Source: Eledone cirrhosa
Taxonomy: Eukaryota
NCBI GenBank assembly: GCA_964016885.1
Contig: OZ024749.1
Span: 27,094,001-27,158,000, forward strand
Direction: 5' to 3'
Length of the DNA stretch: 64,000 nt
A model generated the notes under the pieces. That model made no database searches, was not told the origin of the DNA, and worked only from the letters and a program-made list of their open reading frames with translations. Shown here piece by piece: positions 5,623 through 64,000 of this stretch. The position numbers and the translations under genes are program-made. The number at the start of each line of letters is the position of its first letter. The first letter of the stretch is position 1.

Positions 5623-5678
<56 letters not shown>

Positions 5679-5837
5679 GATAAATCTACCAAGAGTTTAC
5701 GGTAGTGTCCAATCCTATATATATATATATATAGGAACCAGTAAGACCCCGACAGCTGAGCTCAAGCCGTTTCGACGGCTAATTCTGGACTTAGTCCAGA
5801 ATTAGCCGTCGAAACGGCTTGAGCTCAGCTACTCGTT

Positions 5838-5895
<58 letters not shown>

Positions 5896-6148
5896 GATAA
5901 ATCTACCAAGAGTTTACGGTAGTGTCCAATCCTATATATATATATATATAGGAACCAGTAAGACCCCGACAACTGAGCTCAAGCCGTTTCGACGGCTAAT
6001 TCTGGACTTAGTCCAGAATTAGCCGTCGAAACGGCTTGAGCTCAGCTGTCGGGGTCTTACTGGTTCCTATTACCCACTCTACTACCTCAAGTATTGAGTA
6101 CTTTGGTGCGTTATGGTCCACCTGGTTCCTTACCACATTTCCTTCGTT
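5428..6148. repeat. Cluster of three palindromic elements plus two 40-bp stubs of the 37788 element end
   Basis: ~55-60-bp-arm hairpins; gtagataaatctaccaagagtttacggtagtgtccaatcc at ~5676 and ~5893. Confidence 0.8.
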
Positions 6149-19400: not shown

Positions 19401-22400
19401 TCACCACCAACAACAACAGCAACATCACTACCACTGCACAATAAACACCACCACCAACAACAACAACAGCAACATCACTACCACTGCACAACAAACACCA
19501 CCACCACCAACAACAGCACCATCACTACCACTGCACAATAAACACCACCATCAACGACAACAACAACATCACTACCACTGCACAACAAACACCACCACCA
19601 CCAACAACAGCAACATCACTACCACTGCACAATAAACACCACCACCAACAACAACAACAGCAACATCACTACCACTGCACAACAAACACCACCACCACCA
19701 ACAACAGCACCATCACTACCACTGCACAATAAACACCACCATCAACGACAACAACAACATCACTACCACTGCACAACAAACACCACCACCAACAACAACA
19801 GCAACATCACTACCACTGCACAATAAACACCACCATCAACGACAACAACAACATCACTACCACTGCACAACAAACACCACCACCAACAACCACAACAGCA
19901 ACATCACTACCACTGTACAATAAACACCACCATCAACGACAACAACAACATCACTACCACTGCTCAATAAACACCACCACCACCAACAACAACATCACTA
20001 CCACTGCACAACAAACACCACCACCAACAACAACAACAGCAACATCACTACCACTGCACAACAAACACCACCACCACCAACAACAACAACATCACTACCA
20101 CTGCACAACAAACACCACCACCAACAACAACAACAACATCACTACCACTGCACAACAAACACCACCACCACCAACAACAACAACATCACTACCACTGCTC
20201 AATAAACACCACCACCACCAACAACATCACTACCACTGCACAACAAACACCACCACCAACAACAACAACAGCAACATCACTACCACTGCACAACAAACAC
20301 CACCACCAACAACAACAGCAACATCACTACCACTGCACAACAAACACCACCACCACCAACAACAACAACATCACTACCACTGCACAACAAACACCACCAC
20401 CACCAACAACAGCAACATCACTACCACTGCACAACAAACACCACCACCACCAACAACAGCAACATCACTACCACTGCACAACCAACACCACCACCAACAA
20501 CATCACTACCACTGCACAATAAACACCACCACCACCAACAACAGCAACATCACTACCACGGCACAATAAACACCACCACCAACGACAACAACAACATCAC
20601 TACCACTGCACAACAAACACCACCACCAACAACCACAGCAACATCACTACCACGGCACAATAAACACCACCACCAACAACATCACTACCACTGCACAACA
20701 AACACCACCACCAACGACAACAACAACATCACTACCACGGCACAATAAACACCACCACCAACAACCACAGCAACATCACTACCACTGCACAACAAACACC
20801 ACCACCAACAACAGCAACATCACTACCACTGCACAACAAACACCACCACCACCAACAACCACAGCAACATTACTACCACTGCACAACAAACACCACCACC
20901 ACCAACAACAACAACATCACTACCACTGCACAACAAACACCACCACCACCACCAACAACAGCAACATCACTACCACTGCACAATAAACACCACCACCACC
21001 AACAACAGCAACATCACTACCACTGCACAACAAACACCACCACCACCAACAACAACAATATCACTACCACTGCACAATAAACACCACCACCACCAACAAC
21101 CACAGCAACATCACTACCACTGCACAATAAACACAACCACCAACAACCACAGCAACATCACTACTACTGCACAATAAACACCACCACCACCAACAACAGC
21201 AACATCACTACCACTGCACAACAAACACCACCAACAACAACAACATCACTACCACTGCACAATAAACACCACCACCACCAACAACCACAGCAACATCACT
21301 ACCACTGCACAATAAACACCACCACCACCAACAGCAACATCACTACTACTGCACAATAAACACCACCACCACCAACAGCAACATCACTACTACTGCACAA
21401 TAAACACCACCACCACCAACAGCAACATCACTACTACTGCACAATAAACACCACCACCAACATCACTACCACTGCACAACAAACACCACCACCACCAACA
21501 ACAACAACATCACTACCACTGCACAATAAACACCACCACCACCAACAACCACAGCAACATCACTACCACTGCACAATAAACACCACCACCACCAACAGCA
21601 ACATCACTACTACTGCACAATAAACACCACCACCAACAACCACAGCAACATCACTACCACTGCACAATAAACACAACCACCAACAACCACAGCAACATCA
21701 CTACCACTGCACAATAAACACCACCACCAACAACAACAGCAACATCATTACCACTGCACAACAAACACCACCACCACCAACAACCACAGCAACATCACTA
21801 CCACTGCACAACAAACACCACCACCACCAACAACAGCAACATCACTACCACTGCACAATAAACACCACCACCAACAACCACAGCAACATCACTACCACTG
21901 CACAACAAACACCACCACCACCAACAACAACATCACTACCACTCCACAATAAACACCACCACCAACAACAACAGCAACATCACTACCACTGCACAATAAA
22001 CACCACCACCAACAACAACAGCAACATCACTACCACTGCACAACAAACACCACCACCAACAACAACAGCAACATCACTACCACTGCACAACAAACACCAC
22101 CACCAACAACAACAGCAACATCAGTACCACTGCACAACAAACACCACCACGACCAACAACAACAACATCACTACCACTGCACAATAAACACCACCACCAA
22201 CAACAACAGCAACATCACTACCACTGCACAATAAACACCACCACCAACAACAACATCACTACCACTGCACAACAAACACCACGACCAACAACAACATCAC
22301 TACCACTGCACAACAAACACCACCACCAACAACAACATCACTACCACTGCACAACAAACACCACCACCAACAACAGCAACATCACTACCACTGCACAACA

Positions 22401-25400
22401 AACACCACCACCAACAACAATATCACTACCACTGCACAATAAACACCACCACCAACAACAACATCACTACCACTGCACAATAAACACCACCACCAACAAC
22501 AACAACAACATCACTACCACTGCACAACAAACACCACCACCAACAACAACAGCAACATCACTACCACTGCACAACAAACACCACCACCAACAACAACATC
22601 ACTACCACTGCACAACAAACACCACCACCAACAACAACAACAACATCACTACCACTGCACAACAGACACCACCACCAACAACCACAGCAACATCACTACC
22701 ACTGCACAACAAACACCACCACCAACAACAACAACATCACTACCACTGCACAACAAACACCACCACCAACAACAACATCACTACCACTGCACAATAAACA
22801 CCACCAACAACAACAACAACAGCAACATCACTACCACTGCACAATAAACACCACCACCAACAACAACAGCAACATCACTACCACTGCACAACAAAAACCA
22901 CCACCAACAACAACAACATCACTACCACTGCACAACAAACACCACCACCAACAACAACATCACTACCACTGCACAATAAACACCACCAACAACAACAACA
23001 GCAACATCACTACCACTGCACAACAAACACCACCACCAACAACAACATCACTACCACTGCACAACAAACACCACCACCAACAACAACAACATCACTACCA
23101 CTGCACAACAAACACCACCAACAACAACAACATCACTACCACTGCACAATAAACACCACCAACAACAACAACAGCAACATCACTACCACTGCACAATAAA
23201 CACCACCACCAACAACAACAGCAACATCACTACCACTGCACAATAAACACCACCACCACCAACAACAACAACATCACTACCACTGCACAATAAACACCAC
23301 CACCAACAACAACAGCAACATCACTACCACTGCACAATAAACACCACCACCACCAACAAGAACAACATCACTACCACTGCACAATAAACACCACCACCAA
23401 CAACAACAGCAACATCACTACCACTGCACAATAAACACCACCACCACCAACAACAACAACATCACTACCACTGCACAACAAACACCACCACCAACAACAA
23501 CAACATCACTACCACTGCACAACAAACACCACCACCAACAACAACAACATCACTACCACTGCACAACAAACACCACCACCAACAACAACAACATCACTAC
23601 CACTGCACAATAAACACCAACAACAACAACAACAGCAACTTCACTACCACTGCACAATAAACACCACCACCAACAACAACAGCAACATCACTACCACTGC
23701 ACAATAAACACCACCACCACCAACAACAACAACATCACTACCACTGCACAATAAACACCACCAACAACAACATCACTACCACTGCACAACAAACACCACC
23801 ACCAACAACAACAACATCACTACCACTGCACAACAAACACCACCACCAACAACAACAACATCACTACCACTGCACAATAAACACCACCAACAACAACAAC
23901 AGCAACATCACTACCACTGCACAACAAACACCACCACCAACAACAACAAAATCACTACCACTGCACAACAAACACCACCACCAACAACAACAACATCACT
24001 ACCACTGCACAACAAACACCACCTCCAACAACAACAGCAACATCACTACCACTGCACAATAAACACCACCACCAACAACAACAGCAACATCACTACCACT
24101 GCACAATAAACACCACCACCACCAACAACAACAACATCACTACCACTGCACAATAAACACCACCAACAACAGCAGCAACATCACTACCACTGCACAATAA
24201 ACACCACCAACAACAACAACAGCAACATCACTACCACTGCACAACAAACACCACCACCAACAACAACAAAATCACTACCACTGCACAACAAACACCACCA
24301 CCAACAACAACAACATCACTACCACTGCACAATAAACACCACCACCAACAACAACAGCAACATCACTACCACTGCACAACAAACACCACCACCAACGACA
24401 ACAGCAACATCACTACCACTGCACAATAAACACCACCACCACCAACAACAACAACATCACTACCACTGCACAACAAACACCACCACCAACGACAACAGCA
24501 ACATCACTACCACTGCACAACAAACACCACCACCAACAACAACAACAACAACATCACTACCACTGCACAACAAACACCACCACCACCAACAACAGCACCA
24601 TCACTACCACTGCACAATAAACACCACCACCAACAACCACAGCAACATCACTACCACTGCACAATAAACACCACCACCAACAACAACAGCAACATCACTA
24701 CCACTGCACAATAAACACCACCATCAACGACAACATCACTACCACTGCACAACAAACACCACCAACAACAACAACAACATCACTACCACTGCACAATAAA
24801 CACCACCACCAACAACAACAGCAACATCACTACCACTGCACAACAGACACCACCACCAACAACAACAACAACATCACTACCACTGCACAACAAACACCAC
24901 CACCAACAACAACAACAGCAACATCACTACCACTGCACAATAAACACCACCACCAACAACAACAGCAACATCACTACCACTGCACAATAAACACCACCAC
25001 CAACAACAACAACAACAACATCACTACCACTGCACAATAAACACCACCACCAACAACCACAGCAACATCACTACCACTGCACAACAAACACCACCACCAA
25101 CAACAACAACAACATCACTACCACTGCACAACAAACACCACCACCAACAACAACAGCAACATCATTACCACTGCACAATAAACACCACCACCAACAACAA
25201 CAACATCACTACCACTGCACAATAAACACCACCACCAACAACCACAGCAACATCACTACCACTGCACAACAAACACCACCACCACCAACAACAGCAACAT
25301 CACTACCACTGCACAACAAACACCACCACCAACAACCACAGCAACATCACTACCACTGCACAACAAACACCACCACCACCAACAACAACAGCAACATCAC

Positions 25401-28400
25401 TACCACTGCACAACAAACACCACCACCAACAACAACAGCAACATCACTACCACTGCACAATAAACACCACCACCAACAACAACAGCAACATCACTACCAC
25501 TGCACAACAAACACCACCACCACCAACAACAACAGCAACATCACTACCACTGCACAACAAACACCACCACCAACAACAACAACAGCAACATCACTACCAC
25601 TGCACAACAAACACCACCACCACCAACAACAACAGCAACATCACTACCACTGCACAATAAACACCACCACCAACAACAACAGCAACATCACTACCACTGC
25701 ACAATAAACACCACCACCAACAACAACAGCAACATCACTACCACTGCACAACAAACACCACCACCACCAACAACAACAGCAACATCACTACCACTGCACA
25801 ATAAACACCACCACCAACAACAACAGCAACATCACTACCACTGCACAATAAACACCACCACCAACAACAACAGCAACATCACTACCACTGCACAATAAAC
25901 ACCACCACCAACAACAACAGCAACATCACTACCACTGCACAATAAACACCACCACCAACAACAACAGCAACATCACTACCACTGCACAACAAACACCACC
26001 ACCACCAACAACAACAGCAACATCACTACCACTGCACAATAAACACCACCACCAACAACAACAGCAACATCACTACCACTGCACAATAAACACCACCACC
26101 AACAACAACAGCAACATCACTACCACTGCACAATAAACACCACCACCAACAACAACAGCAACATCACTACCACTGCACAATAAACACCACCACCAACAAC
26201 AACAGCAACATCACTACCACTGCACAACAAACACCACCACCACCAACAACAACAGCAACATCACTACCACTGCACAACAAACACCACCACCACCAACAAC
26301 AACAGCAACATCACTACCACTGCACAATAAACACCACCACCAACAACAACAGCAACATCACTACCACTGCACAATAAACACCACCACCAACAACAACAGC
26401 AACATCACTACCACTGCACAACAAACACCACCACCACCAACAACAACAGCAACATCACTACCACTGCACAACAAACACCACCACCAACAACAACAACAGC
26501 AACATCACTACCACTGCACAACAAACACCACCACCACCAACAACAACAGCAACATCACTACCACTGCACAATAAACACCACCACCAACAACAACAGCAAC
26601 ATCACTACCACTGCACAATAAACACCACCACCAACAACAACAGCAACATCACTACCACTGCACAACAAACACCACCACCACCAACAACAACAGCAACATC
26701 ACTACCACTGCACAATAAACACCACCACCAACAACAACAGCAACATCACTACCACTGCACAACAAACACCACCACCACCAACAACAACAGCAACATCACT
26801 ACCACTGCACAACAAACACCACCACCACCAACAACAACAGCAACATCACTACCACTGCACAATAAACACCACCACCAACAACAACAGCAACATCACTACC
26901 ACTGCACAATAAACACCACCACCAACAACAACAGCAACATCACTACCACTGCACAATAAACACCACCACCAACAACAACAGCAACATCACTACCACTGCA
27001 CAACAAACACCACCACCAACAACAACAGCAACATCACTACCACTGCACAATAAACACCACCACCACCAACAACAACAGCAACATCACTACCACTGCACAA
27101 TAAACACCACCACCAACAACAGCAACAACAACGACATCATCACTACCACTACTACTAACAACAACAACACCAATGCTGCCACCTCCACTAACAACAATAG
27201 CAATAGTAACAACAACTATAGCAACAACTACAACACCATCACCACCACAAACAGTAACAACAACAACAATACTTACTTTGGTTCATTGATATTAAAAGCT
27301 CTTCCTTCATTATTGAAAAGTCTTCTTGGTTTCTTGAGATTTTCATTTTCAGAGCTATAACAACATCAACATATGTATCATATATATTACACACACACAT
27401 ATATATATCACATCACATATACAGACACACACATATCACACACACACATAAGAGCTATAACAACATATGTATCATATATATTACACACACACACACATAT
27501 ATATATCACATCACATATACAGACACACACACATCACACACACACATAAGAGCTACAACAACATCAACATATGTATCATATATATTACACACACACACAC
27601 ATATATATATCACATCACATATACAGACACACACATATCACACACACACATAAGAGCTATAACAACAACATCAACATATGTATCATATATATTACACACA
27701 CACACACATATATATATCACATCACATATACAGACACACACATATCACACACACACATAAGAGCTATAACAACATATGTATCATATATATTACACACACA
27801 CACACATATATATATCACATCACATATACAGACACACACATATCACACACACACATAAGAGCTATAACAACAACATCAACATATGTATCATATATATTAC
27901 ACACACACACATATATATATATCACATCACATATACAGACACACACATATCACACACACACATAAGAGCTATAACAACATCAACATTTGTATCATATATA
28001 TTACACACACACACACATATATATATATATCACATCACATATACAGACACACACATAAGAGCTATAACATCATCATCAACATATGTATCATATATATTAC
28101 ACACACACACACATATATATATATATCACATCACATAAACAGACACACACATATCACACACACACATAAGAGCTATAACAACATCATCAACATATGTATC
28201 ATATATATTACACACACACACACACATATATATCACATCACATATACAGACACACACATATCACACACACACATAAGAGCTATAACAACATATGTATCAT
28301 ATATATTACACACACACACACACATATATATATCACATCACATATACAGACACACACATATCACACACACACATAAGAGCTATAACAACAACATCAACAT

Positions 28401-34138: not shown

Positions 34139-34379
34139 ATATACATATACATATATATATATACATATACATATATATATATATATATATATATTTAGAA
34201 CTAAAAGGAAAGCACAAACAAGGGACAGGTTCCCTCTTCAGTTGTCTGCTGGGGGTCTCGGACATTTTAACGCATTCCCCAGCAGACAACTGAAGAGGGT
34301 ACCTGTCCCTTGTTTGTGCTTTCCTTTCATTTCTAAATACACTTTATCAAGTAACCACACAGCCCCTTGTTCCTTCTAA

Positions 34380-34425: not shown

Positions 34426-37264
34426 GGTGACCTCAAAAACACTCCTTGATTTCAAATACTTATAATATGAAAACTTAAGTGAATATTCTTACAATATTGG
34501 TGGCTACAGTTGCATAAATTAACAAAGTTTCAACAGCAACAACAACTACAACTACAACAACAATTTTAACTACAACTACACAAGCCAGACATAATTACCT
34601 TGTTTTAGTGGAATCACCATCGTTATTATCTCCGTTTGTTGATGTTGTGGTGTTCATCCTGTTTTTCTTGGCACATATTTCTTCCTTTTGTGCTTTCTGT
34701 TGAAAGACAAATCAGTGTATCATCACCATCATCACCAACACCACCACCACTATCATCATCATCATCATCATCATCACCATCATCACCACTATCATCATCA
34801 CCATCATCCCCACCACCACCACCACCATCATCACTATCATCATCACCATTATCACTATCATCACTATCATCATCATCATCACCACCACCATCATCACTAT
34901 CCTTATCATCATCACCACCACCATCATCCCTATCATCATCGTTAACATTCTTCGTCCAACTCAAGTCACTCTCTTCAAAGCCACTTCCATGACCCAACGT
35001 TTCATCTCCCATGGTGGGATGACCCCTCTCCCTCTTCTTTCTCGAAAAGCAACATGTAGCCTGCCCTCCCTCCAATGAAAAGCACTCAGTCCACCTATTA
35101 AGGTGGTAGTGCTGATGTCATAACAAAAAACGCCCAGTCCACCTTGTAAGTGGTAGTGCTTGTGCCATGACAAAAAGCACCCAGTCCACCTTGTAAGGCG
35201 GTAGTGCTGTAAGGTGCTGATGCCACAACAAAAAACACCTAGTCAACCTTGCAAAATGGTAGTGCTGGTGCCATGACAAAAAAACACCCAGTCCACCTTG
35301 TAAGGTGGTAGTGCTAATGCCACGACAAAAAACACCCAGTCCTCCTTGTAAAATGGTAGTGTTGGTGTCATAACAAAAAAAACATCCAGTCTTCCCTATA
35401 AGGCTGTTGTGCTGGTGTCATAATAAAATTCTTCCAGTACACACAATGTAAAGTTGTTGGCATTAGGAAGGACATCCAGCCACAAAAACCACCTAGTGTC
35501 AGGATGTGACAAGCTATCTAACCCATGCAAGCATGGTAAAAACACATGAAACAGAGATGATATAAATATGTCTAAATAATCAACTCCATTTTGAGAAAAA
35601 GTAAAGCAAGATGGAGTTTGGAGCCAAGCTGCTAAAGGCCAGATTGTGTGTGTTGTACGAGGGTGGGCGGAAAAGTTCATAGGCTGACTATGAAGGAATG
35701 ATGCTAGAGCTATGAAATCTTGCATGCATTAATTTCAACTCTACTTATTAATAACAGCATTCTTTCTTTCATGAGACTATGTTGAAAAATAAATCTCATT
35801 TTGTCATTCCATGAGAATATCTTGGGCAGCCTATAAACTTTTTAGCCTATGACTTTTTAGGCTCTTGGACAGCCTATGAAGGAGCGATGCTAGAGCTGTG
35901 AAATCTTGCACTGAATTAATTTCAACTCTTCTTATTAATAACTGCATTGTTTCTTTCCAGGGACTATGTTGAATAATTAACCACATTTGGTCATTCCATG
36001 AGAATATCTTGGACAGCCTATAAACCTTTTAGCCTGTGACTTTTTCAGCCAACCCTCGTATATCTAGGACTACATTATCCAGTGTGTCCTCCCTCTCTTA
36101 AAGCAGGCAATCATGTTGAAAACAACTTTTTACCATCCAAGTACAAAAATATAAATAAACTCACTCTTTTCTGTAAATATTCTTCTTGCTGTCTCAAGAT
36201 TTTCTCTTCTGTAGCTTTGAAGTTCTGCAATAATTTCATATAAAGGATGAGGTTAAAGATCCCATGACTCCCTGTGGAGTCGTAGAGGCACCATCAAACG
36301 ATGTGTCTAAGGCACTTTTAAACCTGGCGGAGCCCAACCCTCTCCATGTCTGAACACAGATGATTTTTTTTCTATAGAGGATGAATTGACCCTAGTACTG
36401 CACTGGTACTTTTTTTATCGACCTCGAAAAGGATGAAAGGCAAAGTTGACCACGGCGGGATTTGAACTCATAGCACGCAATGATAGGGGACGAATACAGT
36501 AAAGCATTCTATCCAACGTCTTAACAACTCCTAAATTTGCCGCCTAATTTCATATATTATATATATATATCTTTAGAGAGAGAGAGAGGCTGCAGGGCTG
36601 AGAGTTGGGAGACCACTAATCATGGGAGTACTCAATGCATGGGGAGATACAGAGTGGGTATAGAGATAGGTAAGATCCCAAACACAGCTCCAAGGGAGAT
36701 TAATTTTTGTTTTTCAGACCATAAGCCCACATTTAATTTACTTTGGTGTCGTGTTCCTTTATATCCTGTTCCCCCACCCCAGCACACCTGCACCTTCTGT
36801 AATTAATTTAAGAGTTTTCTTGCTTCACCTTTCAGCTTATTCGTCTGAGGTAACCTTCTATGTTCTCGTCCTCTTTCCTGCTAATTTAACGATTACACTT
36901 CACCTTATTATTATTCTCTGGGCTGTGACGTGTCTATTTTGCTTGGTTACCCACCCTTCGCCCTGTCTAATTCCAAACAGCTGCCGTGATAATTTTCCCA
37001 GTGGCTGGGATATATTCTGAGTATTGAAGTAACCATCCTTAAAATATGGAAGACTTAAATTTCCTTTGATATCTGTGATATCCTTGGATTTTCATGCTTA
37101 GAACTGATGGCTGAAGATTGGAAATTATATACATACATGCATAATGATACAGTTAAAGTTAATTTGATTTATCTCAACAAAACAGAAAAGGCATTGGCTG
37201 GGTGCCAATATGTTGTGAGGAGGGAGGGAGGGACAAAGAGAGAGAAATTGTAGGACACAGAGTG

Positions 37265-37313: not shown

Positions 37314-39983
37314 TTTATGGAGGCACATGGCTTAGTGGTTAGAGCATTGGCCTTGCAATCAAAAGGTTGTGAGTTCAATTCTCAGACCGGATGATGTGTT
37401 GTTTCCTTGAGCAAGACACTTTATTTCACATTGCTCCAGTATACTCAGTATACCTGCTTGCAAGGGTGGGACGGGAACTGATTCTGGCTTGATTTCTACA
37501 GCTGGATGCCCTTCCTAACACCAACCTCATTTACAGTGAGTGCTGGGTGCTTTTTTGCCGTGGCACCTCCACGACCACTTTGCAGTGGAATGATATGGGG
37601 CCCCAGTCCCTATCATCTCATTTCTACAGCTGAGCAAACTGGAGCAATGTGAAATAAAGTGTCTTGCTCAAGGAAACTACACATCACCCGGTCTGAGAAT
37701 TGAACTCACAACCTTTTGATTGCAAGGCCAATGCTCTAACCACTAAGCCATGTGCCTCCATATACACATATATATATATATATATATGTAGATAAATCTA
37801 CCAAGAGTTTACGGTAGTGTCCAATCCGTATGAAGAACTCAATGTAATCCGGATATCATGGAAAGAAGAGATGCAATGAAAAATCACTTTCGGTGAAAGA
37901 TAAACGGAATACAGAGTCAAGATAAAATATTAAAAAAATAATGAATAAAACAATGAAACAGTTCCTTATATTAAACAAAAAAAGTTCATTATTTAACGAT
38001 CGTTTCTAGGATATATATGTGTTAGAATTGGCATGCATATTCAACAGATCTATGTACAAAATTATACAAAATTATACAAACTATCAAAATTAAATATACA
38101 TACCAACACATATATATGCCGTCTTCAGAAATAATGAAATATATTTATTGATAATAACAACAATTCAAAATTACAGGTCTGTTTGGGAACAGAGTTCAAA
38201 TTGACCAATGAAAACACAAAAAGTTTATACAGTTAGGTGTATGTATATATGTAAGTAACTTCGTTCACAGATATGCATAAAAATATATATATGTTCACAT
38301 GCATGCGCATGCCGAAAAGATGTATGTAAATACAAAAATTCAGGGCTAATGTCTCTGTATGTTTATAATCTACAGATAAAATACGTATACGCATATAAAC
38401 ACATAAATATAAAAATAAATATATACACATTCATATACTCACACATATACATACATTCACACACACACGCGCGTATACGCATAAACATACACACAATCAC
38501 GAACATACATACACACACACACCCCCACACACATATATGTGTATATACTATTATCATAAGTATATGGACATTAATGCGCGCACATAAACACTGCCACACA
38601 TATTTAGATCCAGATACAGAAAGTAGGTAGGGGGGGAAGAGGTCAGTATTTACTGGTGTCAGCAAACTGTCCGCGCATTGCCTGGAGACTTAACTGAGAA
38701 TAGACTTCCTGATGACGCAATGAATTCTCGACAGTTGGATTACGTAACTGTCTTTATCCCATTGCAGAAACTAATTAGTTGGAGTGAAAATTTAAGTAAG
38801 AAAAAAATTTTTTTTAAATTTTTTTAAAAAAATATTTTCTTATTTTACGTCCTTTATATTATTGTTCTGCATTCTCCTGCATTGAACCACCTAGGTACTA
38901 TGACATAACCTGTGTATTTGCTGGCATGGGCGTGCATCTGTGCGCTTATGTTAGTTGATATATTAAATTATCTATATTTATCTCCAAATCACTGATTTGT
39001 CGAGCAAACTTGTCAAAACCACTTCTAAAAAAATTTTTTTTTTTTTGGGGTGTTAGTAGGCGTCAGTCATCTTACCATCCCATTCCTTCTAACTAGCCTC
39101 TGTGTCACGTGATTGATTCTTTAGAATCGGCCATTTGACTTGAAGCAGTGAGAATTTCGGTACATAGAATCCAGTCCTCGCAAGCTGTTCGATCTACCGA
39201 ATTATTATTATTTTTATATGAGCCGCCAGTGTCCGCGCATTGCCTGGAGACTTAACTGAGAATAGACTTCCTGATGACGCAATGAATTCTCGACAGTTGG
39301 ATTACGTAACTGTCTTTATCCCATTGCAGAAACTAATTAGTTGGAGTGAAAATTTAAGTAAGAAAAAAATTTTTTTTAAATTTTTTTTAAAAAAATATTT
39401 TCTTATTTTACGTCCTTTATATTATTGTTCTGCATTCTCCTGCATTGAACCACCTAGGTACTATGACATAACCTGTGTATTTGCTGGCATGGGCGTGCAT
39501 CTGTGCGCTTATGTTAGTTGATATATTAAATTATCTATATTTATCTCCAAATCACTGATTTGTCGAGCAAACTTGTCAAAACCACTTCTAAAAAAATTTT
39601 TTTTTTTTTTTTTTTTGGGGTGTTAGTAGGCGTCAGTCATCTTACCATCCCATTCCTTCTAACTAGCCTCTGTGTCACGTGATTGATTCTTTAGAATCGG
39701 CCATTTGACTTGAAGCAGTGAGAATTTCGGTACATAGAATCCAGTCCTCGCAAGCTGTTCGATCTACCGAATTATTATTATTTTTATATGAGCCGCCAGT
39801 GTCCGCGCATTGCCTGGAGACTTAACTGAGAATAGACTTCCTGATGACGCAATGAATTCTCGACAGTTGGATTACGTAACTGTCTTTATCCCATTGCAGA
39901 AACTAATTAGTTGGAGTGAAAATTTAAGTAAGAAAAAAATTTTTTTAAAATTTTTTTAAAAAAATATTTTCTTATTTTACGTC

Positions 39984-40027
<44 letters not shown>

Positions 40028-40095
40028 ACACATACACATACACACATACAAAGATATATATATATATATATATATACACACGCACATATAATATA

Positions 40096-40158
<63 letters not shown>

Positions 40159-40454
40159 TATATATACACACATACATACATATACATACTCATACATAGA
40201 CATACATATGTATACACACACACATACACACATGCATATACGCATATATACACATACATACACATCCATGTATGCGTATACACATACAAACACAACCACA
40301 CGCTCACACAACTCAGACATACATAAATAAAGGGATATACATACACATATATACATATATAAATAGAGATACATATACACATATAAATATATACACACAT
40401 ACACACACACACACATATACATACATACACACATACATATATATAAACACACAT

Positions 40455-40519
<65 letters not shown>

Positions 40520-40619
40520 TATATAAAAATAAAGAAATAAAAGAAATAAATAAATAAATTAATTAATACACACAGTCAGACAAATATGTACACACATACA
40601 TGTACACATACATATACAT

Positions 40620-40676
<57 letters not shown>

Positions 40677-43313
40677 CATATACATACATATATATATACA
40701 CATACACACATCAACTACAAATATATATATATATATATATATATATGGAAAGTTATATTTAAATTGTTGGGTTACAACTAGTAAATATTTATAACTGATA
40801 TAAAAGCACTCAACAAGTATTTGGAGTATATTTACGATACTAAATAAATGGAAACTACATCTACAAAACCATATCTATCTCATCATACATACCTCAGGGA
40901 CATCACACCAACAATATGCTGTGTGATGTCCCTGAGGTATGTATGATGAGATAGATATGGTTTTGTAGATGTAGTTTCCATTTATTTAGTATCGTAAATA
41001 TACTCCAAATACTTGTTGAGTGCTTTTATATCAGTTATAAATATTTACTAGTTGTAACCCAACAATTTAAATATAATTAAGTTAAAAATGTACATCCACA
41101 TATGTATACTGAAATACTAGTATGCATATGAATACACACACGTATACATATGTAGATGTACCGAGTTTTTCACTGGTCACTTTACTGTGAGTGTCCAGCT
41201 ATTCTGTATGTAAACACACAGACAAACCGGTTTTTAGAGTCATACTGGTTTTTGAGGAAACACCTTTCCTCTATTCTCCAGAAAGCCAGACAAGGAATAT
41301 TGAACTAGTTTCGATGTTGTTACATCTCATCAGCAATATTTACCTATCTTCCGGCCTCTCTAGAGAATCGTAAAAGCACATATCGTTATATGCTTTTTCT
41401 ATGAAAATTAGTAGTGGGCAGACTAATTTGCATAGAGCGTGAGTACGTACCGGTTCAACGGAGACGATAAAAACAAATAACGAAACAAAATTAAATTTCG
41501 TTTCGTTTGTAACTCACTTTTGTATGACTGACGCTTAAACAATTAAGTTAAAAATGTACATCCACATATGTATACTGAAATACTAGTATGCATATGAATA
41601 CACACACGTATACATATGTAGATGTACCGAGTTTTTCACTGGTCACTTTACTGTGAGTGTCCAGCTATTCTGTATGTAAACACACAGACAAACCGGTTTT
41701 TAGAGTCATACTGGTTTTTGAGGAAACACCTTTCCTCTATTCTCCAGAAAGCCAGACAAGGAATATTGAACTAGTTTCGATGTTGTTACATCTCATCAGC
41801 AATATTTACCTATCTTCCGGCCTCTCTAGAGAATCGTAAAAGCACATATCGTTATATGCTTTTTCTATGAAAATTAGTAGTGGGCAGACTAATTTGCATA
41901 GAGCGTGAGTACGTACCGGTTCAACGGAGACGATAAAAACAAATAACGAAACAAAATTAAATTTCGTTTCGTTTGTAACTCACTTTTGTATGACTGACGC
42001 TTAAACAATTAAGTTAAAAATGTACATCCACATATGTATACTGAAATACTAGTATGCATATGAATACACACACGTATACATATCTAGATTTACCGAGTTT
42101 TTCACAGAATAGCTGGACACTCACAGTAAAGTGACCAGTGAAAAACTCGGTACATCTACATATGTATACGTGTGTGTATTCATATGCATACTAGTATTTC
42201 AGTATACATATGTGGATGTACATTTTTAACTTAATTGTTTAAGCGTCAGTCATACAAAAGTGAGTTACAAACGAAACGAAATTTAATTTCGTTTCGTTAT
42301 TTGTTTTTATCGTCTCCGTTGAACCGGTACGTACTCACGCTCTATGCAAATTAGTCTGCCCACTACTAATTTTCATAGAAAAAGCATATAACGATATGTG
42401 CTTTTACAATTCTCTAGAGAGGCCGGAAGATAGGTAAATATTGCTGATGAGATGTAACAACATCGAAACTAGTTCAATATTCCTTGTCTGGCTTTCTGGA
42501 GAATAGAGGAAAGGTGTTTCCTCAAAAACCAGTATGACTCTAAAAACCGGTTTGTCTGTGTGTTTACATACAGAATAGCTGGACACTCACAGTAAAGTGA
42601 CCAGTGAAAAACTCGGTACATCTACATATGTATACGTGTGTGTATTCATATGCATACTAGTATTTCAGTATACATATGTGGATGTACATTTTTAACTTAA
42701 TTGTTTAAGCGTCAGTCATACAAAAGTGAGTTACAAACGAAACGAAATTTAATTTCATTTCGTTATTTGTTTTTATCGTCTCCGTTGAACCGGTACGTAC
42801 TCACGCTCTATGCAAATTAGTCTGCCCACTACTAATTTTCATAGAAAAAGCATATAACGATATGTGCTTTTACGATTCTCTAGAGAGGCCGGAAGATAGG
42901 TAAATATTGCTGATGAGATGTAACAACATCGAAACTAGTTCAATATTCCTTGTCTGGCTTTCTGGAGAATAGAGGAAAGGTGTTTCCTCAAAAACCAGTA
43001 TGACTCTAAAAACCGGTTTGTCTGTGTGTTTACATACAGAATAGCTGGACACTCACAGTAAAGTGACCAGTGAAAAACTCGGTACATCTACATATGTATA
43101 TGTGTGTGTATTCATATGCATACTAGTATTTCAGTATACATATGTGGATGTACATTTTTAACTTAATTGTTTAAGCGTCAGTCATACAAAAGTGAGTTAC
43201 AAACGAAACGAAATTTAATTTCGTTTCGTTATTTGTTTTTAATTTAAATATAACTTTCCATATATATATTTGTAGTTGATGTGTGTATGTGTATATATAT
43301 ATGTATGTATATG

Positions 43314-43378
<65 letters not shown>

Positions 43379-43491
43379 ATGTATATGTATGTGTACATGT
43401 ATGTGTGTACATATTTGTCTGACTGTGTGTATTAATTAATTTATTTATTTATTTCTTTTATTTCTTTATTTTTATATATATATGTATATAT

Positions 43492-43542
<51 letters not shown>

Positions 43543-43830
43543 ATGTGTGTGTATATATATGTATGTGTGTATGTATGTGTATGTATATGTGTGTGTGTGT
43601 GTGTGTGTATATATTTATATGTGTATATGTATCTCTATTTATATATGTATATCCCTTTATTTATGTATGTCTGAGTTGTGTGAGCGTGTGGTTGTGTTTG
43701 TATGTGTATACGCATACATGGATGTGTATGTATGTGTATATATGAGTATATGTATGTGTGTATGTGTGTGTGTATATATATGTATGTCTATGTATGAGTA
43801 TGTATATGTATGTATGTGTGTATATATATA

Positions 43831-43893
<63 letters not shown>

Positions 43894-43962
43894 TATATTA
43901 TATGTGCGTGTGTATATATATATATATCTTTGTATGTGTGTATGTGTATGTGTGTGTATGTA

Positions 43963-44018
<56 letters not shown>

Positions 44019-44078
44019 GGTATGTATGTGTATGTGTGTATATACATGAGTGTGTTTATATATGTGTATAGATATATG

Positions 44079-44139
<61 letters not shown>

Positions 44140-44346
44140 ATGTGTGTTGTGAATGTATATATGTATGTGTCTCTATATGTATGCGTGTGTGTATGTGTAT
44201 GTGTATTTATATGGTGTGTGTATGTATATGTATGTGTATGTATGTGTTTATGTATATGTGTATGTATATGTATGTATATATATGTATATATATATATATG
44301 TATATGTATGTATATCGATGTATATTTTATATTTTACTTGTTTATA

Positions 44347-44419
<73 letters not shown>

Positions 44420-45226
44420 TTTCTTAATATTTTTCTTTTTTCTTTTTCTTTTTATTTCTAAATTTATAGATACATTTATAAATAGGCAGTTTGCTGACAC
44501 CAGTAAATACTGACCTCTTCCCCCCCCCCTACCTACTTTCTGTATCTGGATCTAAATATGTGTGGCAGTGTTTATGTGCGCGCATTAATGTCCATATGCT
44601 TATGATAATAGTATATACACATATGTGTGTGGGGGTGTGTGTGTGTATGTATGTTCGTGATTGTGTGTATGTTTATGCGTATACGCGCGTGTGTGTGTGA
44701 ATGTATGTATATGTGTGAGTATATGAATGTGTATATATTTATTTTTATATTTATGTGTTTATATGCGTATACGTATTTTATCTGTAGATTATAAACATAC
44801 AGAGACATTAGCCCTGAATTTTTGTATTTACATACATCTTTTCGGCATGCGCATGCATGTGAACATATATATATTTTTATGCATATCTGTGAACGAAGTT
44901 ACTTACATATATACATACACCTAACTGTATAAACTTTTTGTGTTTTCATTGGTCAATTTGAACTCTGTTCCCAAACAGACCTGTAATTTTGAATTGTTGT
45001 TATTATCAATAAATATATTTCATTATTTCTGAAGACGGCATATATATGTGTTGGTATGTATATTTAATTTTGATAGTTTGTATAATTTTGTATAATTTTG
45101 TACATAGATCTGTTGAATATGCATGCCAATTCTAACACATATATATCCTAGAAACGATCGTTAAATAATGAACTTTTTTTGTTTAATATAAGGAACTGTT
45201 TCATTGTTTTATTCATTATTTTTTTA

Positions 45227-45282
<56 letters not shown>

Positions 45283-49731: not shown

Positions 49732-50651
49732 TATATATATATGCAAAAGTTTTATTTAAAATTGTTGGGTTACAACAAGTAAATATTTTATAACTGATAT
49801 AAAGCACTCGACAAGTTTTGGAGTAGATATACGATATTAAACAAATGGAAACTATATTTATAAAACCATATTTATTTCATTATACATATTTCGGGGATAC
49901 CATATTAAAAATATTCATGAATATTGATATTTACATTATATTACCCAATTCATATGAGTTGATAATTCAAATTGACAGGACATAACGTAAAGATGTAAAT
50001 CTATCATAACTCTCTCTAGATATAGCTCTTTCTTCTCCTCCCTCTTTATATATGATGAAGTCTATGTATCCGTTGTTTTAACTTTGCCTCTCCTATTTCT
50101 CTCTTGATTTTCACCTCCCCCTATATAATTATTATTATTTGGTCTACCTCTTTTTCCCCCCACCTCTATCTTTCTCTCTCTCTGTTTTCTCTTCATCTTT
50201 TATTTCTCTCCGTCTCCTCCCCAACTGTCCTTAACACTATAACTAAATAATTACAGTACTCCCTCCCTCCTAAATCTCTCAATTTGTATGATGAATTATT
50301 ATTATTCATCTGTTGCCTCAGCTGCCTCTCTTTTTTCACCTCCTCACTATTTCTCTCTCCCCTATCTCTCTCTATTTCTCTCTGTTTTTCTTTACATACA
50401 TTTCTTCTTTTTCTCCGTCTTTCTTTTTTTTAACTGTGTTTAACACTAAATATTTATAAACATCTCACTACCAAACCAGCTTCTTACATAACGGTTGCTC
50501 AATTATTTATGGTACGTCAAAATTATTTATAAAACTGTTTATATATTGTATTTTATCTGAAGAAGGCATGCCATATTTTTAATATGGTATCCCCGAAATA
50601 TGTATAATGAAATAAATATGGTTTTATAAATATAGTTTCCATTTGTTTAAT

Positions 50652-50719
<68 letters not shown>

Positions 50720-50829: not shown

Positions 50830-51064
50830 TATAAACACATATGTTGTGTTTCAAGGGCCATGAAAAGGGTCAGAGACACTTCCCTTTCCTCTTAAAGGTA
50901 TCAGAATCCCTGAAAATGGTCTCAGACACAGCCCTTCCATCACTGACTAAACATTTAAAATACACAGTTATTTTCTGAAGAGATTGTGGTTAATCATAAT
51001 ATTATTAGTTTACCTGCATTGCAACAATTCTCTCAGATTTCTTAATATGTTTCCCATCCAATCT
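6201..51064 (-). CDS. DNAAF11: Dynein axonemal assembly factor 11 (LRRC6/seahorse/TilB), 5'-partial spliced CDS, 11 exons, 960 nt, 319 aa
   Basis: Manual splice: 51014-51064, 36165-36224, 34599-34696, 33349-33417, 30237-30326, 27277-27354, 11752-11817, 10900-10969, 9402-9497, 7597-7676, 6201-6402. All introns are GT-AG, phases are compatible and the frame is open. LRRC6-type motifs: LDGK.I..SERI.A.Q, FW...[53 protein letters not shown], and C-terminal F.DNP.VP.LI*. N-terminal LRR exons were not found. Confidence 0.93.
6455..7225 (-). mobile_element. Cluster of tRNA-derived SINE family 2 copies
   Basis: Recurrent tttggcacaaggccagc..actggtactttattttatcgaccc..ggatgaaaggcaaagt..gatttgaactc (B box on minus); other copies at ~8280-8462, 31075-31195, 31685-31865 and 36365-36535. 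Confidence 0.8.
7370..7578 (+). mobile_element. Decayed R4/Dong-like LINE restriction-like endonuclease fragment
   Basis: Reads ..[34 protein letters not shown]..; lies near (TAA)n runs. Confidence 0.6.
7597..7676 (-). CDS. DNAAF11: DNAAF11 exon ([26 protein letters not shown])
   Basis: ctccacttcag|ATGAAG...TGAACG|gtaata; 80 nt, phase 0-2; bridges the phases of the flanking exons. Confidence 0.8.
8999..9098. mobile_element. Tc1/mariner-type MITE (~100 bp)
   Basis: TIRs cagggtgcccccaaaaacgtatacacact / agtgtgtatacattttgggatcacgctg. Confidence 0.6.
9402..9497 (-). CDS. DNAAF11: DNAAF11 exon ([32 protein letters not shown])
   Basis: ttttcttcaatcag|ATCTTT...CCAAAG|gtaagt; 96 nt, phase 0-0; [10 protein letters not shown] signature. 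Confidence 0.93.
10050..10445 (+). mobile_element. SINE family 1
   Basis: Near-identical to 173-507. Confidence 0.85.
10900..10969 (-). CDS. DNAAF11: DNAAF11 exon ([23 protein letters not shown])
   Basis: tttctgtgtag|GTTTCT...GGAAAG|gtaagc; 70 nt, phase 2-0. Confidence 0.93.
11752..11817 (-). CDS. DNAAF11: DNAAF11 exon ([21 protein letters not shown]), CS-like domain start
   Basis: ctttcctacacag|GATCAA...TTACAA|gtaagt; 66 nt, phase 2-2. Confidence 0.9.
11878..27120. repeat. ~15.2 kb minisatellite, consensus 47 bp CACAAYAAACACCACCACCAACAACMACAGCAACATCACTACCACTG
   Basis: Uninterrupted array of roughly 330 units (length/period estimate); units vary by whole CAC/AAC triplets. Confidence 0.97.
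27277..27354 (-). CDS. DNAAF11: DNAAF11 exon ([25 protein letters not shown])
   Basis: gttgttatag|CTCTGA...ACCAAA|gtaagt; 78 nt, phase 2-2. Confidence 0.9.
27351..29745. repeat. ~100-110-bp minisatellite (about 23 units) abutting a DNAAF11 exon
   Basis: Unit agagctataacaac(aacatcaac)atatgtatcatatatattac(ac)n(at)ncacatcacatatacagacacacacatatcacacacacacata. Confidence 0.95.
29946..30117 (-). mobile_element. RTE-type LINE C-terminal fragment (second family)
   Basis: [26 protein letters not shown]...[11 protein letters not shown]...*. Confidence 0.7.
30237..30326 (-). CDS. DNAAF11: DNAAF11 exon ([29 protein letters not shown])
   Basis: aattgtag|GTTTTG...AAAGAG|gtgact; 90 nt, phase 2-2; conserved FW..FTPESR motif. 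Confidence 0.9.
30882..31247. mobile_element. piggyBac-like MITE (TTAA ends) with a nested SINE
   Basis: TTAA-TCCTTTAGCATT...AATGCTAAAGGG-TTAA; related copies at 1271-1563 (interrupted) and 33452-33760; second family at 31316-31544. Confidence 0.7.
32088..33180. repeat. 67/68-bp minisatellite (~16 units) with a 203-bp higher-order period
   Basis: Unit cctcagtacaatagtcaactggtggggtaacagtggtgttgtaacacactccccaccccacactacc(c); identical ORFs recur every 203 bp. Confidence 0.95.
33349..33417 (-). CDS. DNAAF11: DNAAF11 exon ([22 protein letters not shown])
   Basis: tcttttcag|GTGTGA...GAAAGA|gtaagt; 69 nt, phase 2-2. Confidence 0.78.
33452..33760. mobile_element. piggyBac-like MITE with a duplicated right end
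   Basis: ttaatcctttagcatt...aatgctaaagggttaa (33667), then a repeat of the last ~95 bp. Confidence 0.7.
34193..34338. repeat. Hairpin element with ~60-bp arms
   Basis: aaaggaaagcacaaacaagggacagg..ctcttcagttgtctgctgggg and its reverse complement; one arm also occurs at ~53410-53450. Confidence 0.8.
34599..34696 (-). CDS. DNAAF11: DNAAF11 exon ([32 protein letters not shown])
   Basis: tctttcaacag|AAAGCA...AACAAG|gtaatt; 98 nt, phase 0-2; poorly conserved linker but phase-compatible. Confidence 0.75.
35080..35440. repeat. ~50-55-bp diverged tandem repeat in a SINE/RTE tail region
   Basis: aaaaacacccagtccaccttgtaaggtggtagtgctggtgccatgac repeated ~7 times, followed by an RTE-like tail. Confidence 0.75.
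35656..36061. mobile_element. Mariner-type MITE (internally duplicated)
   Basis: TA-CGAGGGTGGGCGGAAAAGTTCATAGGCT...TTTTCAGCCAACCCTCG-TA; related copies at ~4140-4260 and ~4810-5010. Confidence 0.75.
36165..36224 (-). CDS. DNAAF11: DNAAF11 exon ([20 protein letters not shown])
   Basis: ttattgcag|AACTTC...AAAAGA|gtgagt; 60 nt, phase 0-0. Confidence 0.85.
37318..37760. mobile_element. SINE family 1 (minus, 37454-37760) with an inverted copy of its 5' ~130 bp (37318-37447)
   Basis: ggaggcacatggcttagtggttagagc... and its reverse complement at the two ends. Confidence 0.88.
37985..38138 (-). ncRNA. Type I hammerhead ribozyme motif, family A (long helix II)
   Basis: Reverse complement of 45019-45172. 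Confidence 0.75.
38704..38785 (+). ncRNA. Type I hammerhead ribozyme motif, family B, copy 1
   Basis: ACTTC-CTGATGA-C[GCAATG..GACAGTT(loop)AACTGTC..CATTGC]A-GAAAC-TAATTA-GTT-GGAGT; helix III palindrome AACTAATTAGTT. Confidence 0.72.
39266..39347 (+). ncRNA. Type I hammerhead ribozyme motif, family B, copy 2
   Basis: Identical to 38704-38785. Confidence 0.72.
39836..39917 (+). ncRNA. Type I hammerhead ribozyme motif, family B, copy 3
   Basis: Identical to 38704-38785. Confidence 0.72.
40752..41077. repeat. Near-perfect hairpin, ~155-bp arms with a short loop
   Basis: ttatatttaaattgttgggttac...cagggacatcacac / gtgtgatgtccctg...gtaacccaacaatttaaatataa; same family as 49746-49913. Confidence 0.9.
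41296..41340 (-). ncRNA. Minimal type I hammerhead ribozyme, family C
   Basis: Reverse complement of AATATTG-CTGATGA-GATGT(AACA)ACATC-GAAAC-TA-GTT-CAATATT. Confidence 0.85.
41762..41806 (-). ncRNA. Minimal type I hammerhead ribozyme, family C
   Basis: Same motif, 466 bp from the previous copy. Confidence 0.85.
42437..42481 (+). ncRNA. Minimal type I hammerhead ribozyme, family C
   Basis: AATATTG-CTGATGA-GATGT(AACA)ACATC-GAAAC-TA-GTT-CAATATT: 7-bp helix I, 5-bp helix II closed by G-C, intact core, palindromic AACTAGTT helix III. Confidence 0.85.
42903..42947 (+). ncRNA. Minimal type I hammerhead ribozyme, family C
   Basis: Same motif, 466 bp downstream of 42437. Confidence 0.85.
45019..45172 (+). 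ncRNA. Type I hammerhead ribozyme motif, family A (long helix II)
   Basis: TTCATTATTT-CTGAAGA-C[GGCATATATATGTGTT...AACACATATATATCCT]A-GAAAC-GATC-GTT-AAATAATGAA; perfect 10-bp helix I and palindromic helix III AACGATCGTT. Confidence 0.75.
45531..46051 (+). mobile_element. RTE LINE 3'UTR-only fragment
   Basis: Matches 49122-49491; ends in (GAT)n. Confidence 0.85.
46576..47378 (+). mobile_element. CR1/L2-group LINE 3' fragment
   Basis: IRDLGI...FSSHI...LAGWILRTF...[14 protein letters not shown]...[28 protein letters not shown]; embedded in (TA)n. Confidence 0.85.
47908..48207 (-). mobile_element. SINE family 1
   Basis: Homology to 173-507. Confidence 0.82.
48235..49491 (+). mobile_element. 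RTE LINE, 5'-truncated
   Basis: Same family as 58606-61866: Cys/His finger, [28 protein letters not shown]; frameshift near 48862; (GAT)n tail; flanked by (TA)n. Confidence 0.92.
49746..50656. mobile_element. pLTR-like element with an inverted terminal copy and a decayed hammerhead
   Basis: 49832-49913 is the reverse complement of 50574-50655; + strand ~50553-50610 reads CTGAAGA-AGG..ATGCCATAT/ATATGGTAT..CC-GAAATATGTA. Confidence 0.6.
51014..51064 (-). CDS. DNAAF11: DNAAF11 exon ([17 protein letters not shown]), LRRcap end
   Basis: tatcttcag|AGATTG...ATGCAG|gtaaac; 51 nt, phase 0-0. Confidence 0.9.
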
Positions 51065-53358: not shown

Positions 53359-53411
<53 letters not shown>

Positions 53412-53933
53412 AGGAAAGCACAAACAAGGGACAGGTTCGCTCTTCAGTGGTCTGACATTTCAACGCATTAAAGACAATATGTCTATCCCCAGTGCTATCC
53501 CCAATAACTTTTGTAAGCTATTGGGGAAGGAGAAAAGGAACGAAAAAAAACCGCAGAAAACATACCAATAAAGGAGGGGAACATGAGGAGAAAAAGCACA
53601 TGTATGTAAGTAACCGGTAGAGAGAGAGAGAAGGCAAACCGGCAGCTGAACATAAGCCCGAGGTTTTATTGACAACAATATAAGGAGAGCGAAGAAAAAC
53701 AAGTCTAACATCGGCAGGAGTAGGCACAAAGAGGCAGAGACGAGATAAAACAGAAGTAGTAAGGGAGCAAAGAGAAAGAGAGTATGAGTGGAAGAGAGAC
53801 AGAGAGGGGGGAGGGGAAAGAAAGGGTAAGAGTTAATAATAACAACAAGGGAGATGGATATATATATATGTATATATAAAAAAAAAAAGAAAAAACAAGA
53901 TGATGTAGGACAGAGCAAAGAAAAGAATCCCCA

Positions 53934-63009: not shown

Positions 63010-63479
63010 TATGTATATATAAATATATGTATATATAAATACATATATATATATTGGTAAACGGAATAGAAAATGCTGACAAATTGTTCACAGTTGAAAA
63101 ATAGTTTAATTAGGAATAAAAGAGTATTAGTAATTGTATGGGTTAGTATTCAGTTGTGGTTTTAAGTTTTTAAGTTTTTACCGGTTGCGCATTTCTAAAT
63201 GCTTTTCAAAAATAATTTTGAGATAGAGTGTCCGTGTTGTTTGCTCTGATCTAATTAGTTTTGGGAATTCTACCTGTTTTTATGTTAAAAAAGTGGCTCC
63301 AGCGCTACTTTGGTGTTGCAAAAATTCTTGTGGTCAAAACAATTTTGATTGGTCGGTAGAGGTCATGTGAATGTAAAAAATTGATTTTGCGCCAAGACTG
63401 AGGAATGACTCTTTCACAACAAATATGTGTGTGTGTGTATGTGTGTGTAGTAGTAGTAAAGTGTTCGATGTTGTGATAA

Positions 63480-64000
63480 TGGTTCTAGTGACGTTCGATG
63501 TAGTCAACCTATACTCCAACATCCCCCACAACCTAGGAATAGAAGCTATCCAATTCTTGCTGGATAATTACCACAATGAACTCCCACAACGCATCAAAAA
63601 AGAATTTGTGATAGAGGAACTCAAATTTATCTTGGAGAACAATTACTTCGTTTTCAATAACAAACCTTACAGGCAGAAATCTGGGACCGCTATGGGAACG
63701 AAAACAGCCCCCACTTATGCCAACCTAGTCATGGGATACCTGGAAATCACCCTCTTCACTAAAGTCCTAAACAAATTTGGAAACACTTACACATTGAAAG
63801 GAACTGGAAGCGATATCTAGATGACTGCTTCATCCTTTGGCACGAAAACATCGAAAAACTTAAAGAATTTCACACCCTTATAAATGGGCTCAACACGAAT
63901 ATTAACTTCACGATGGAATACAGCCAGCAACAACTCCCCTTCCTCGACATCCTCATTAAGATCCATAACAAAAAAATAGAAACAGACATATACTACAAGC
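63480..64000 (+). mobile_element. Penelope-like element reverse transcriptase, 5'-truncated and frameshifted, runs off the window
   Basis: LVTFDVVNLYSNIP...NYFVFNNKPYRQKSGTAMGTKTAPTYANLVMG, then after a frameshift near 63790 WKRYLDDCFILW...INFTME...LPFLDI...TDIYYK. Confidence 0.9.

Follow-up and report, generated by a model that had tools for sequence, protein, structure and literature searches.

The anatomy of Penelope-like elements (PLEs), with an inverted arm and a tail, has been drawn in PMC8557442 and PMC3846280 (cited, like most papers here, from parts of their text). PMC4209133 noted dual hammerhead motifs on opposite strands and described cleavage of multimer transcripts as dimers. 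Animal non-LTR retrozymes are recognised by a GC content under 45-50%, the lack of long terminal repeat (LTR) structure and a duplication of more than 4 nt; their mobilisation by PLEs was proposed by Cervera and de la Pena in 2020 (PMC7229834) and by Li, Clavereau and Pollet in a 2026 preprint (bioRxiv 10.64898/2026.07.22.740005). In vitro insertion by the anole Poseidon PLE PAc can dispense with hammerhead cleavage (PMC11167929), and for a squid the part cited of PMC6962438 counts hammerhead matches and does nothing more. Earlier work has thus described hammerheads, tails and inverted arms of PLEs as well as retrozyme arrays. Here we analysed a window of 64,000 nt from Eledone cirrhosa (assembly GCA_964016885.1, contig OZ024749.1, positions 27,094,001 to 27,158,000), in which a stack of repeat modules at 37788-45235 carries three hammerhead families, A, B and C. 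This stack is very probably the 5'-truncated, head-to-head tail of a Hydra-type PLE (family A) in an intron of DNAAF11, to which the arrays B and C were likely added later, pasted in trans by PLE machinery.

The stack lies between two minus-strand host exons, in a 14.8-kb intron, as a first-pass annotation made from the sequence alone had stated. Pfam CS_DNAAF11_C matched a downstream exon of the host gene (E 6e-13), which identified the gene as DNAAF11 (LRRC6), and further minus-strand exons with proper splice sites were found at 67640, 70423, 72888 and 74036 (numbering continued past the window end). Self-comparison of the window showed outer arms (37922-38669/44487-45235) that are 99% alike, microsatellite arms pairing 39987-40730 with 43260-44000, a hairpin at 40753-41076 and a C palindrome at 41075-43241. 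Of the 7.4-kb span that the annotation had called a palindrome, the mirrored part makes up only ~70% (sum of the self-comparison coordinates): the B array (38668-39995) is mirror-less, 44000-44486 has no left-arm counterpart, and there are two centres, at 40909-40920 for the outer structure and at ~42105 for C. No credible protein was found in the stack, in agreement with the annotation, as all seven open reading frames (ORFs) of at least 100 aa are microsatellite read-throughs.

Family A had been taken for an unrelated non-coding module, which proved wrong: it is the pLTR (pseudo-LTR) of an ORF-bearing PLE. A first look at the 3.0-Gb genome gave 1,318 family A candidates, and 20 long stretches (ten-kb), picked for the tail end, were surveyed (fetched loci are given L numbers). 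At other loci A co-occurs with the modules D, M and M2 as one element adjoining a reverse transcriptase (RT)/GIY-YIG ORF. Pieces of this ORF were present in 11/20 stretches, and at L062 and L079 it sits between A copies (YRDD and VY...YIG motifs in L079). Its motifs comprise RWR, DKT, YRDD, CNCTNKANC (CxCx5C linker), CRLC..E (CxxC), LN..E..CNH (CxH), plus GIY-YIG at the C-terminus. They answer to the set given for the Hydra clade, with an RWK-type motif, DKT, the linker, and CxxC and CxH flanking a conserved E and N. Pfam and PDB searches with the ORF were uninformative; it has 165 unnamed homologues, one of them listed with PF00078. The tandem period of family A is 6.2 and 6.7 kb, including a 3-kb 3' untranslated region (UTR) in which TA runs are 5-7 times denser than in the local background, and deletions in the M region are common, with 424-1605 nt between anchors across copies. 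Two 3' ends, 134 nt apart, were found, both of which lie upstream of the start codon. In 11/20 stretches the element formed an inverted pair that combined a long end with a short one, and the truncated, ORF-less window copy has the same form. The flanks lie in TA at 22/24 tail ends and 11/12 short ends; the remaining three run on into the element. The window pLTRs differ by 1 substitution in 748 nt, compared with 3-17 against 38 other copies, and since they are closer to each other than to any other copy, one insertion made both arms. The arms differ further by 8 substitutions in D/M and in microsatellite lengths. A, together with the microsatellite arms and the central hairpin, represents the 3' UTR and pLTR of a PLE with Hydra-clade motifs.

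Other insertions and fragments linked to family A were also seen. Its 3' UTR holds a relic inverted insertion of family D (L079:6062-6486), with the core of one arm intact and the GAAA of the other altered, and an older inverted D insertion, whose hammerhead-like core is at 50557, lies in the window at 49745-50663. The family A tail end recurs in the window as two 39-nt fragments (5676-5714 and 5893-5931), located in TA runs within a hairpin repeat of 217-nt period.

Families B and C are retrozyme arrays, so the annotation's assignment of the hammerheads to Penelope-type and retrozyme-type elements held. Exact core patterns matched the 3.0-Gb genome 2,760 times for B and 7,812 times for C, and reversed controls 0 times; extrapolation from the first 100 listed matches gave ~1,200-1,600 B loci and ~1,650-2,000 C loci. 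Both families are non-coding tandem arrays with a type I hammerhead per unit, a GC content of 0.35-0.36 and no LTR structure, and A, B and C are dispersed separately in the genome. Each of the two has two fixed 3' ends, which set a tail of 119 nt in B and 74 nt in C. The ends were surveyed in 58 stretches, which yielded 27 two-armed C and 18 two-armed B loci. Results showed one long and one short end at 23/27 C and 17/18 B loci (40/45 together). In unselected lists, a minus-then-plus order was found in 10/26 C clusters and 13/57 B clusters, and plus-then-minus in none. The ends lie in TA runs or AT-rich DNA. Target duplications of 12-15 nt were read at six C loci with readable flanks, none was present at L104, and most other C flanks, like the B flanks, are pure TA, in which duplications are unreadable. 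These results indicate that B and C bear the PLE insertion signature genome-wide, namely fixed ends, head-to-head arms, TA targets and duplications.

The arrays also bear on the template. Both arms carry one subfamily haplotype at 26/27 two-armed C loci (scored by eye), the left arm of L090 being mixed. This, together with the A pairs, ruled out two RNA templates per insertion. Arm length and central truncation point vary independently among loci, and fold-back copying is therefore not favoured as a general source of the second arm. Editing of the templates from A to I found no support either, the A>G excess not being significant (8 vs 5, p 0.41; 3 vs 0, p 0.08). Window B units show no substitutions outside homopolymers (shared-variant columns), and most arrays are uniform, which is compatible with circles or with uniform parent arrays. 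At L097 two variants are mirrored from the outer ends, which, with the mixed arm of L090, fits linear multimer templates; 22 other multi-copy variants are not mirrored, mostly in L090 and at a labile hairpin site. Sister families keep the array form, and one of them, 67% identical to B, has two ends ~118 nt apart. A sister family of C forms a long satellite-like array with a period of ~442 nt and a recurring hammerhead motif (G000:C2:382994000-383024000; L144-L157). An 11-mer with what we take to be a CRE/AP-1-like look is common to B, at unit position 401, and C, and an element which we presume to be an octamer motif is kept in C and its sister family; both are, on our assumption, possible internal promoter elements (11-mer and octamer sites at positions 140 and 241 of the C unit). 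No common fold was found between A and C at the two start sites.

How the three families came together was read from the junctions. C lies within the A right arm, where 13 nt of A sequence are duplicated around it, and B begins in a TA run of the A left arm, where ~490 nt of the A 3' UTR are replaced. C was also found inside the A 3' UTR at L066/L108 and L071, i.e. in 2/20 stretches (0.11-0.13 expected, P ~0.006-0.008), at different positions and with different subfamilies, and PLEs tend to insert into or beside earlier copies, according to part of a review (PMC6765202). The 'insertion hotspot' that the annotation had offered as one option came near the truth, but its alternative, a composite unit, fails (see below).

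One rival is a single complex event, in which the polymerase switched to B (or C) RNA during the A insertion and the stack formed at once. The duplication-less B, coinciding with the deletion of ~490 nt, would suit such an event, as would the youth of all three parts (B units without substitutions, A pLTRs 1 substitution apart). We nevertheless regard it as unlikely, because another one-armed B array, at L125, likewise abuts non-TA sequence on its 5' side with no A nearby, M-region deletions occur frequently in A copies, and the clean duplication of A sequence by C requires that A was already double-stranded DNA. Insertion of the A left arm and B as one hetero product was ruled out, the left arm being the sister of the right one.

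Less probable again is the composite non-autonomous unit of the annotation, A, B and C moving as one piece. Three hammerhead families within 7.4 kb would invite it, PLE pLTRs can take unrelated sequence along in trans (PMC3846280, part of the text), and the family A UTR already holds a captured relic of family D. However, 28- and 33-mers across the A/B and D/C junctions had one genome match each, the window itself, with one mismatch allowed; the junctions are unique and the families are dispersed separately, which argues that A+B+C is not a composite unit. Moreover, C is present in only one of two arms made from the same template, with a 13-nt duplication of its own, and in other A copies it sits elsewhere and belongs to other subfamilies. 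The genome-wide check that the annotation had called for thus gave a divided answer: A does flank a Penelope ORF, but A, B and C do not co-occur as a fixed unit. Least probable of all is an assembly artefact from fold-back or chimeric long reads, since, although long near-perfect palindromes are prone to misassembly and form a known assembly hazard, the arms differ (1 substitution in A, 8 in D/M, microsatellite lengths), the ends fall at family-wide fixed positions with a target duplication, and the same geometry recurs on many contigs.

Table 1. Modules, hammerheads and flanking exons of the stack (window numbering).
Feature	Coordinates	Strand	Remark
DNAAF11 (LRRC6) exon, downstream side of stack	36165..36224	-	splice sites, open frame
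Family A left arm: PLE pLTR with 134-nt tail (37788-37921), end in TA run	37788..38669	-	
Hammerhead A (left), core start 38128, predicted cut after 37995	37986..38137	-	mirror of right copy
One-armed array of family B (2.35 units, each 562-570 nt); 3' end of the short, tail-less type, in TA run	38668..39995	+	
Hammerhead B copy 1, predicted cut after 38780	38704..38785	+	
Hammerhead B copy 2, predicted cut after 39342	39266..39347	+	
Hammerhead B copy 3, predicted cut after 39912	39836..39917	+	
Rest of family A left arm: module D and the microsatellite-rich 3' UTR (M); 5' truncation at 40920	39996..40920	-	
Family A inversion centre, 12-nt unpaired loop	40909..40920	.	
Family A right arm, 5' part (module D), broken by C	40921..41076	+	
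C target-site duplication, 13 nt, left copy	41064..41076	.	
Left arm of family C: 2.2 units (466 nt each), 3' end of the short type	41075..42105	-	
Hammerhead C, predicted cut after 41303	41296..41340	-	
Hammerhead C, predicted cut after 41769	41762..41806	-	
Right arm of family C: 2.4 units, 3' end of the long type with 74-nt tail	42104..43241	+	
Hammerhead C, predicted cut after 42474	42437..42481	+	
Hammerhead C, predicted cut after 42940	42903..42947	+	
C target-site duplication, 13 nt, right copy	43241..43253	.	
Right arm of family A: M and M2 of the microsatellite-rich 3' UTR	43254..44486	+	
Family A right arm pLTR, tail-less, end in TA run	44487..45235	+	
Hammerhead A (right), 115-nt helix II region, predicted cut after 45162	45020..45171	+	
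DNAAF11 (LRRC6) exon, upstream side of stack	51014..51064	-	splice sites

The hammerheads were searched with a relaxed type I descriptor, which returned nine motifs, the same nine on both strands that the annotation had placed, and 0 in 300 two-base-block shuffles (a crude control). The family layout likewise matched, with A in the outer arms (cores at 45029 on the plus and 38128 on the minus strand), B three times on the plus strand (38709, 39271 and 39841) and C twice on each (42444 and 42910 on plus, 41799 and 41333 on minus). All nine have the CUGANGA and GAAA core, helices I-III, and the GUU site (NUH type) and palindromic helix III that had been described; in dimers, the helix III palindromes are predicted to form 8 bp (A), 10 bp (B) and 6 bp (C). 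Unlike the pairing annotated, helix II of A and B (regions of 115 and 51 nt) opens with a C.A mismatch. The G10.1-C11.1 closing pair is present in C, and the C sister family has U.U. A stricter descriptor gave the four C copies only. In Rfam, C matched HH9 with 36.5 bits (cut-off 52) and an E of 1.4e-5, and A and B were not among the matches listed (best 150 of 163), so that of the two checks proposed the descriptor returned all nine motifs and Rfam, among the matches listed, C only and below the cut-off.

Within the young families A and B the motifs hardly vary, and covariation was therefore scored in hand-picked related sequences including sister families (12 rows for the C lineage, 9 for the B lineage). 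Two-sided changes were found in 6/14 helix pairs of the C lineage, with 90.5% of cells paired, and in 3/15 pairs of the B lineage, with 99.3% of cells paired. One helix II pair of the B lineage is C-G, U-A or G-C while the C.A and the core are unchanged. The covariation score and the percentage paired exceeded all 500 shuffles and slid controls in both lineages, and the count of covarying pairs did not beat shuffles (92/500 and 285/500). Family A showed one-sided changes only, in one old copy; helix covariation, another check set by the annotation, was thus seen for B and C but not for A. The C.A mismatch persists throughout the B lineage and also in an older A relative. The C10.1.A11.1 hammerheads of A and B may be an active variant that escapes standard descriptors.

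Self-cleavage of transcripts from either strand, as the annotation had supposed, is weakened for A and C. In the head-to-head arrangement the antisense arm is transcribed first in any read-through RNA, and the three motifs on the host-gene strand are accordingly predicted to be masked; the arm duplex for 465 nt of C (-828 kcal/mol) is predicted to outcompete the ribozyme fold. Only the B array lacks a partner arm; it lies antisense to the host gene.

Several observations weigh against the interpretation of the stack as a truncated Hydra-type PLE tail that later received B and C by PLE action in trans. The three longest family A copies translated are all broken, with no unbroken ORF, and 64 sister-family stretches held no ORF-bearing or autonomous element whose pLTR resembles B or C, the searches with sister families yielding only further non-coding arrays. 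The order of events is read from the junctions alone, and B was possibly added during the A insertion. Many two-armed loci had been picked since both orientations were visible, and the end pattern has exceptions, with two short ends at one C and one B locus and ambiguous ends at three C loci. In the window C array, a T/C variant at one hairpin position is unlike between the arms. As to cleavage, helix II of A and B starts with C.A and not with G10.1-C11.1, the monomer hammerhead folds lie +3.3 (A), +2.5 (B) and +7.6 (C) kcal/mol above the minimum-energy folds, and 8/9 Xenopus retrozyme dimers failed to cleave, as given in part of the 2026 preprint (bioRxiv 10.64898/2026.07.22.740005).

The mechanism that we propose starts from two fixed 3' ends per family, 74-134 nt apart, and from two-armed insertions that consist of one of each end, with the 5' ends joined centrally, one subfamily in both arms and TA or AT-rich targets. 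By analogy with the biochemistry in PMC11167929, the PLE enzyme would cut both strands of AT-rich DNA, cDNA would be primed from both broken ends at two internal RNA start sites, and the truncated cDNAs would be joined. The TA-rich A 3' UTR could then act as a landing pad, giving A+B+C stacks with no composite intermediate, and B and C would use the Hydra-type protein in trans. Multimer transcripts of B and C would be cut after GUU, as dimers held by the palindromic helix III, whereas the antisense arms would mask the A and C copies present in the host pre-mRNA. A bolder version, to which we give a little less than an even chance, holds that animal non-LTR retrozymes are full non-autonomous PLEs, that a Hydra-clade RT/endonuclease inserts whole multimer arrays, priming from both ends at two conserved internal start sites and in at least some cases from linear multimeric RNA and not from a circle, that the A UTR serves as the landing pad for the parasites of its own family and that the C.A hammerheads are active.

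Other repeats were noted in the window and the genome. The annotation had named an RT fragment at 63480-64000 as helper; it belongs to a different PLE, 28-29% identical to the family A ORF over ~115 aa, frameshifted and with its own inverted end, and nothing links it to A, B or C. This 5'-truncated copy spans 63060-64000 and beyond (L081), with a CTGAGGA core at 63398, and carries what we take to be Neptune-like motifs. A 15-kb satellite of 47-nt period occupies 11877-27130 in another DNAAF11 intron and is followed by a 107-nt satellite up to 29748. In 0.8 Mb of fetched, overlapping loci (L001-L128), ~10 more type I hammerhead families with palindromic helix III were seen, and such hammerheads are common in this genome. 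A small inverted repeat at 34199-34332 has CTGAAGA on both strands, with a third copy at 53447 (53410-53460); the descriptor found no full hammerhead at either place.

In itself the locus is nothing out of the ordinary, a product of Penelope-type elements that are very active in this genome. Its effect on the host would be to put kilobase-long double-stranded RNA into the DNAAF11 intron. Papers on animal retrozymes propose PLE helpers from co-occurrence and pLTR similarity, and here a mechanistic footprint is given instead, on an estimated 1,200-2,000 young loci per family, which lends support from the genome to the idea, still a hypothesis, that PLEs mobilise animal retrozymes. With the start sites mapped, for B at 83 and 202 nt and for C at 227 and 301 nt downstream of the predicted cut, the questions of the helper and of circular versus linear templates are open to the existing in vitro PLE assay.

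Compared with known systems, family A resembles the Hydra-clade endonuclease-positive (EN+) PLEs of Craig et al. 2021 (PMC8557442, as far as the parts cited describe them) in its C-terminal GIY-YIG, RW(R), DKT, CxCx5C linker, CxxC and CxH, and also in (TA)n targets, a pLTR hammerhead and an inverted 5'-truncated copy with a one-ended tail. It differs in its unit of ~6.2-6.7 kb, Hydra PLEs being generally <3 kb (a tendency and not a strict criterion), in its tail of 134 nt versus 30-40 nt, in its 3-kb microsatellite-rich 3' UTR with a captured relic, and in a 115-nt helix II region opening with C.A. The motifs are like the PLE hammerheads of Cervera and de la Pena 2014 (PMC4209133), type I with an intact core and a palindromic helix III giving a 6-10 bp dimer, but those have a bulge followed by G10.1-C11.1 where A and B have a symmetric C.A at 10.1-11.1; axolotl HHR_Amex2, with a U.U mismatch at 10.1-11.1, still cleaves weakly (PMC7229834).

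B and C are like animal non-LTR retrozymes (PMC7229834; bioRxiv 10.64898/2026.07.22.740005) in their non-coding tandem type I hammerhead units, low GC, self-paired monomers, duplications >4 nt and co-existence with PLEs. Their monomers measure 466 and 560-570 nt, compared with 150-450 nt in PMC7229834 and 51-972 nt in the 2026 preprint. Head-to-head arrays with two fixed ends are frequent among them and speak for insertion of the array as a whole, whereas the preprint suggests local amplification. We did not find the signature of tail plus head-to-head arms reported for animal retrozyme arrays in the open literature, the Chlamys elements coming nearest. Those elements, e.g. MRC1, are non-autonomous PLEs with pLTRs and multicopy head-to-tail insertions (PMC8557442); they share 3' ends with an autonomous family in a clade without canonical hammerheads, as told in the part cited, whereas for B and C no such partner was found. 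Finally, the insertion of A, B and C would resemble that of the anole Poseidon PLE PAc (Frangieh et al. 2024, PMC11167929), in which AT-rich DNA is cut on both strands and two internal RT start sites set the tail, although PAc belongs to another PLE clade and has its start sites inside the ORF, whereas family A ends upstream of the start codon.

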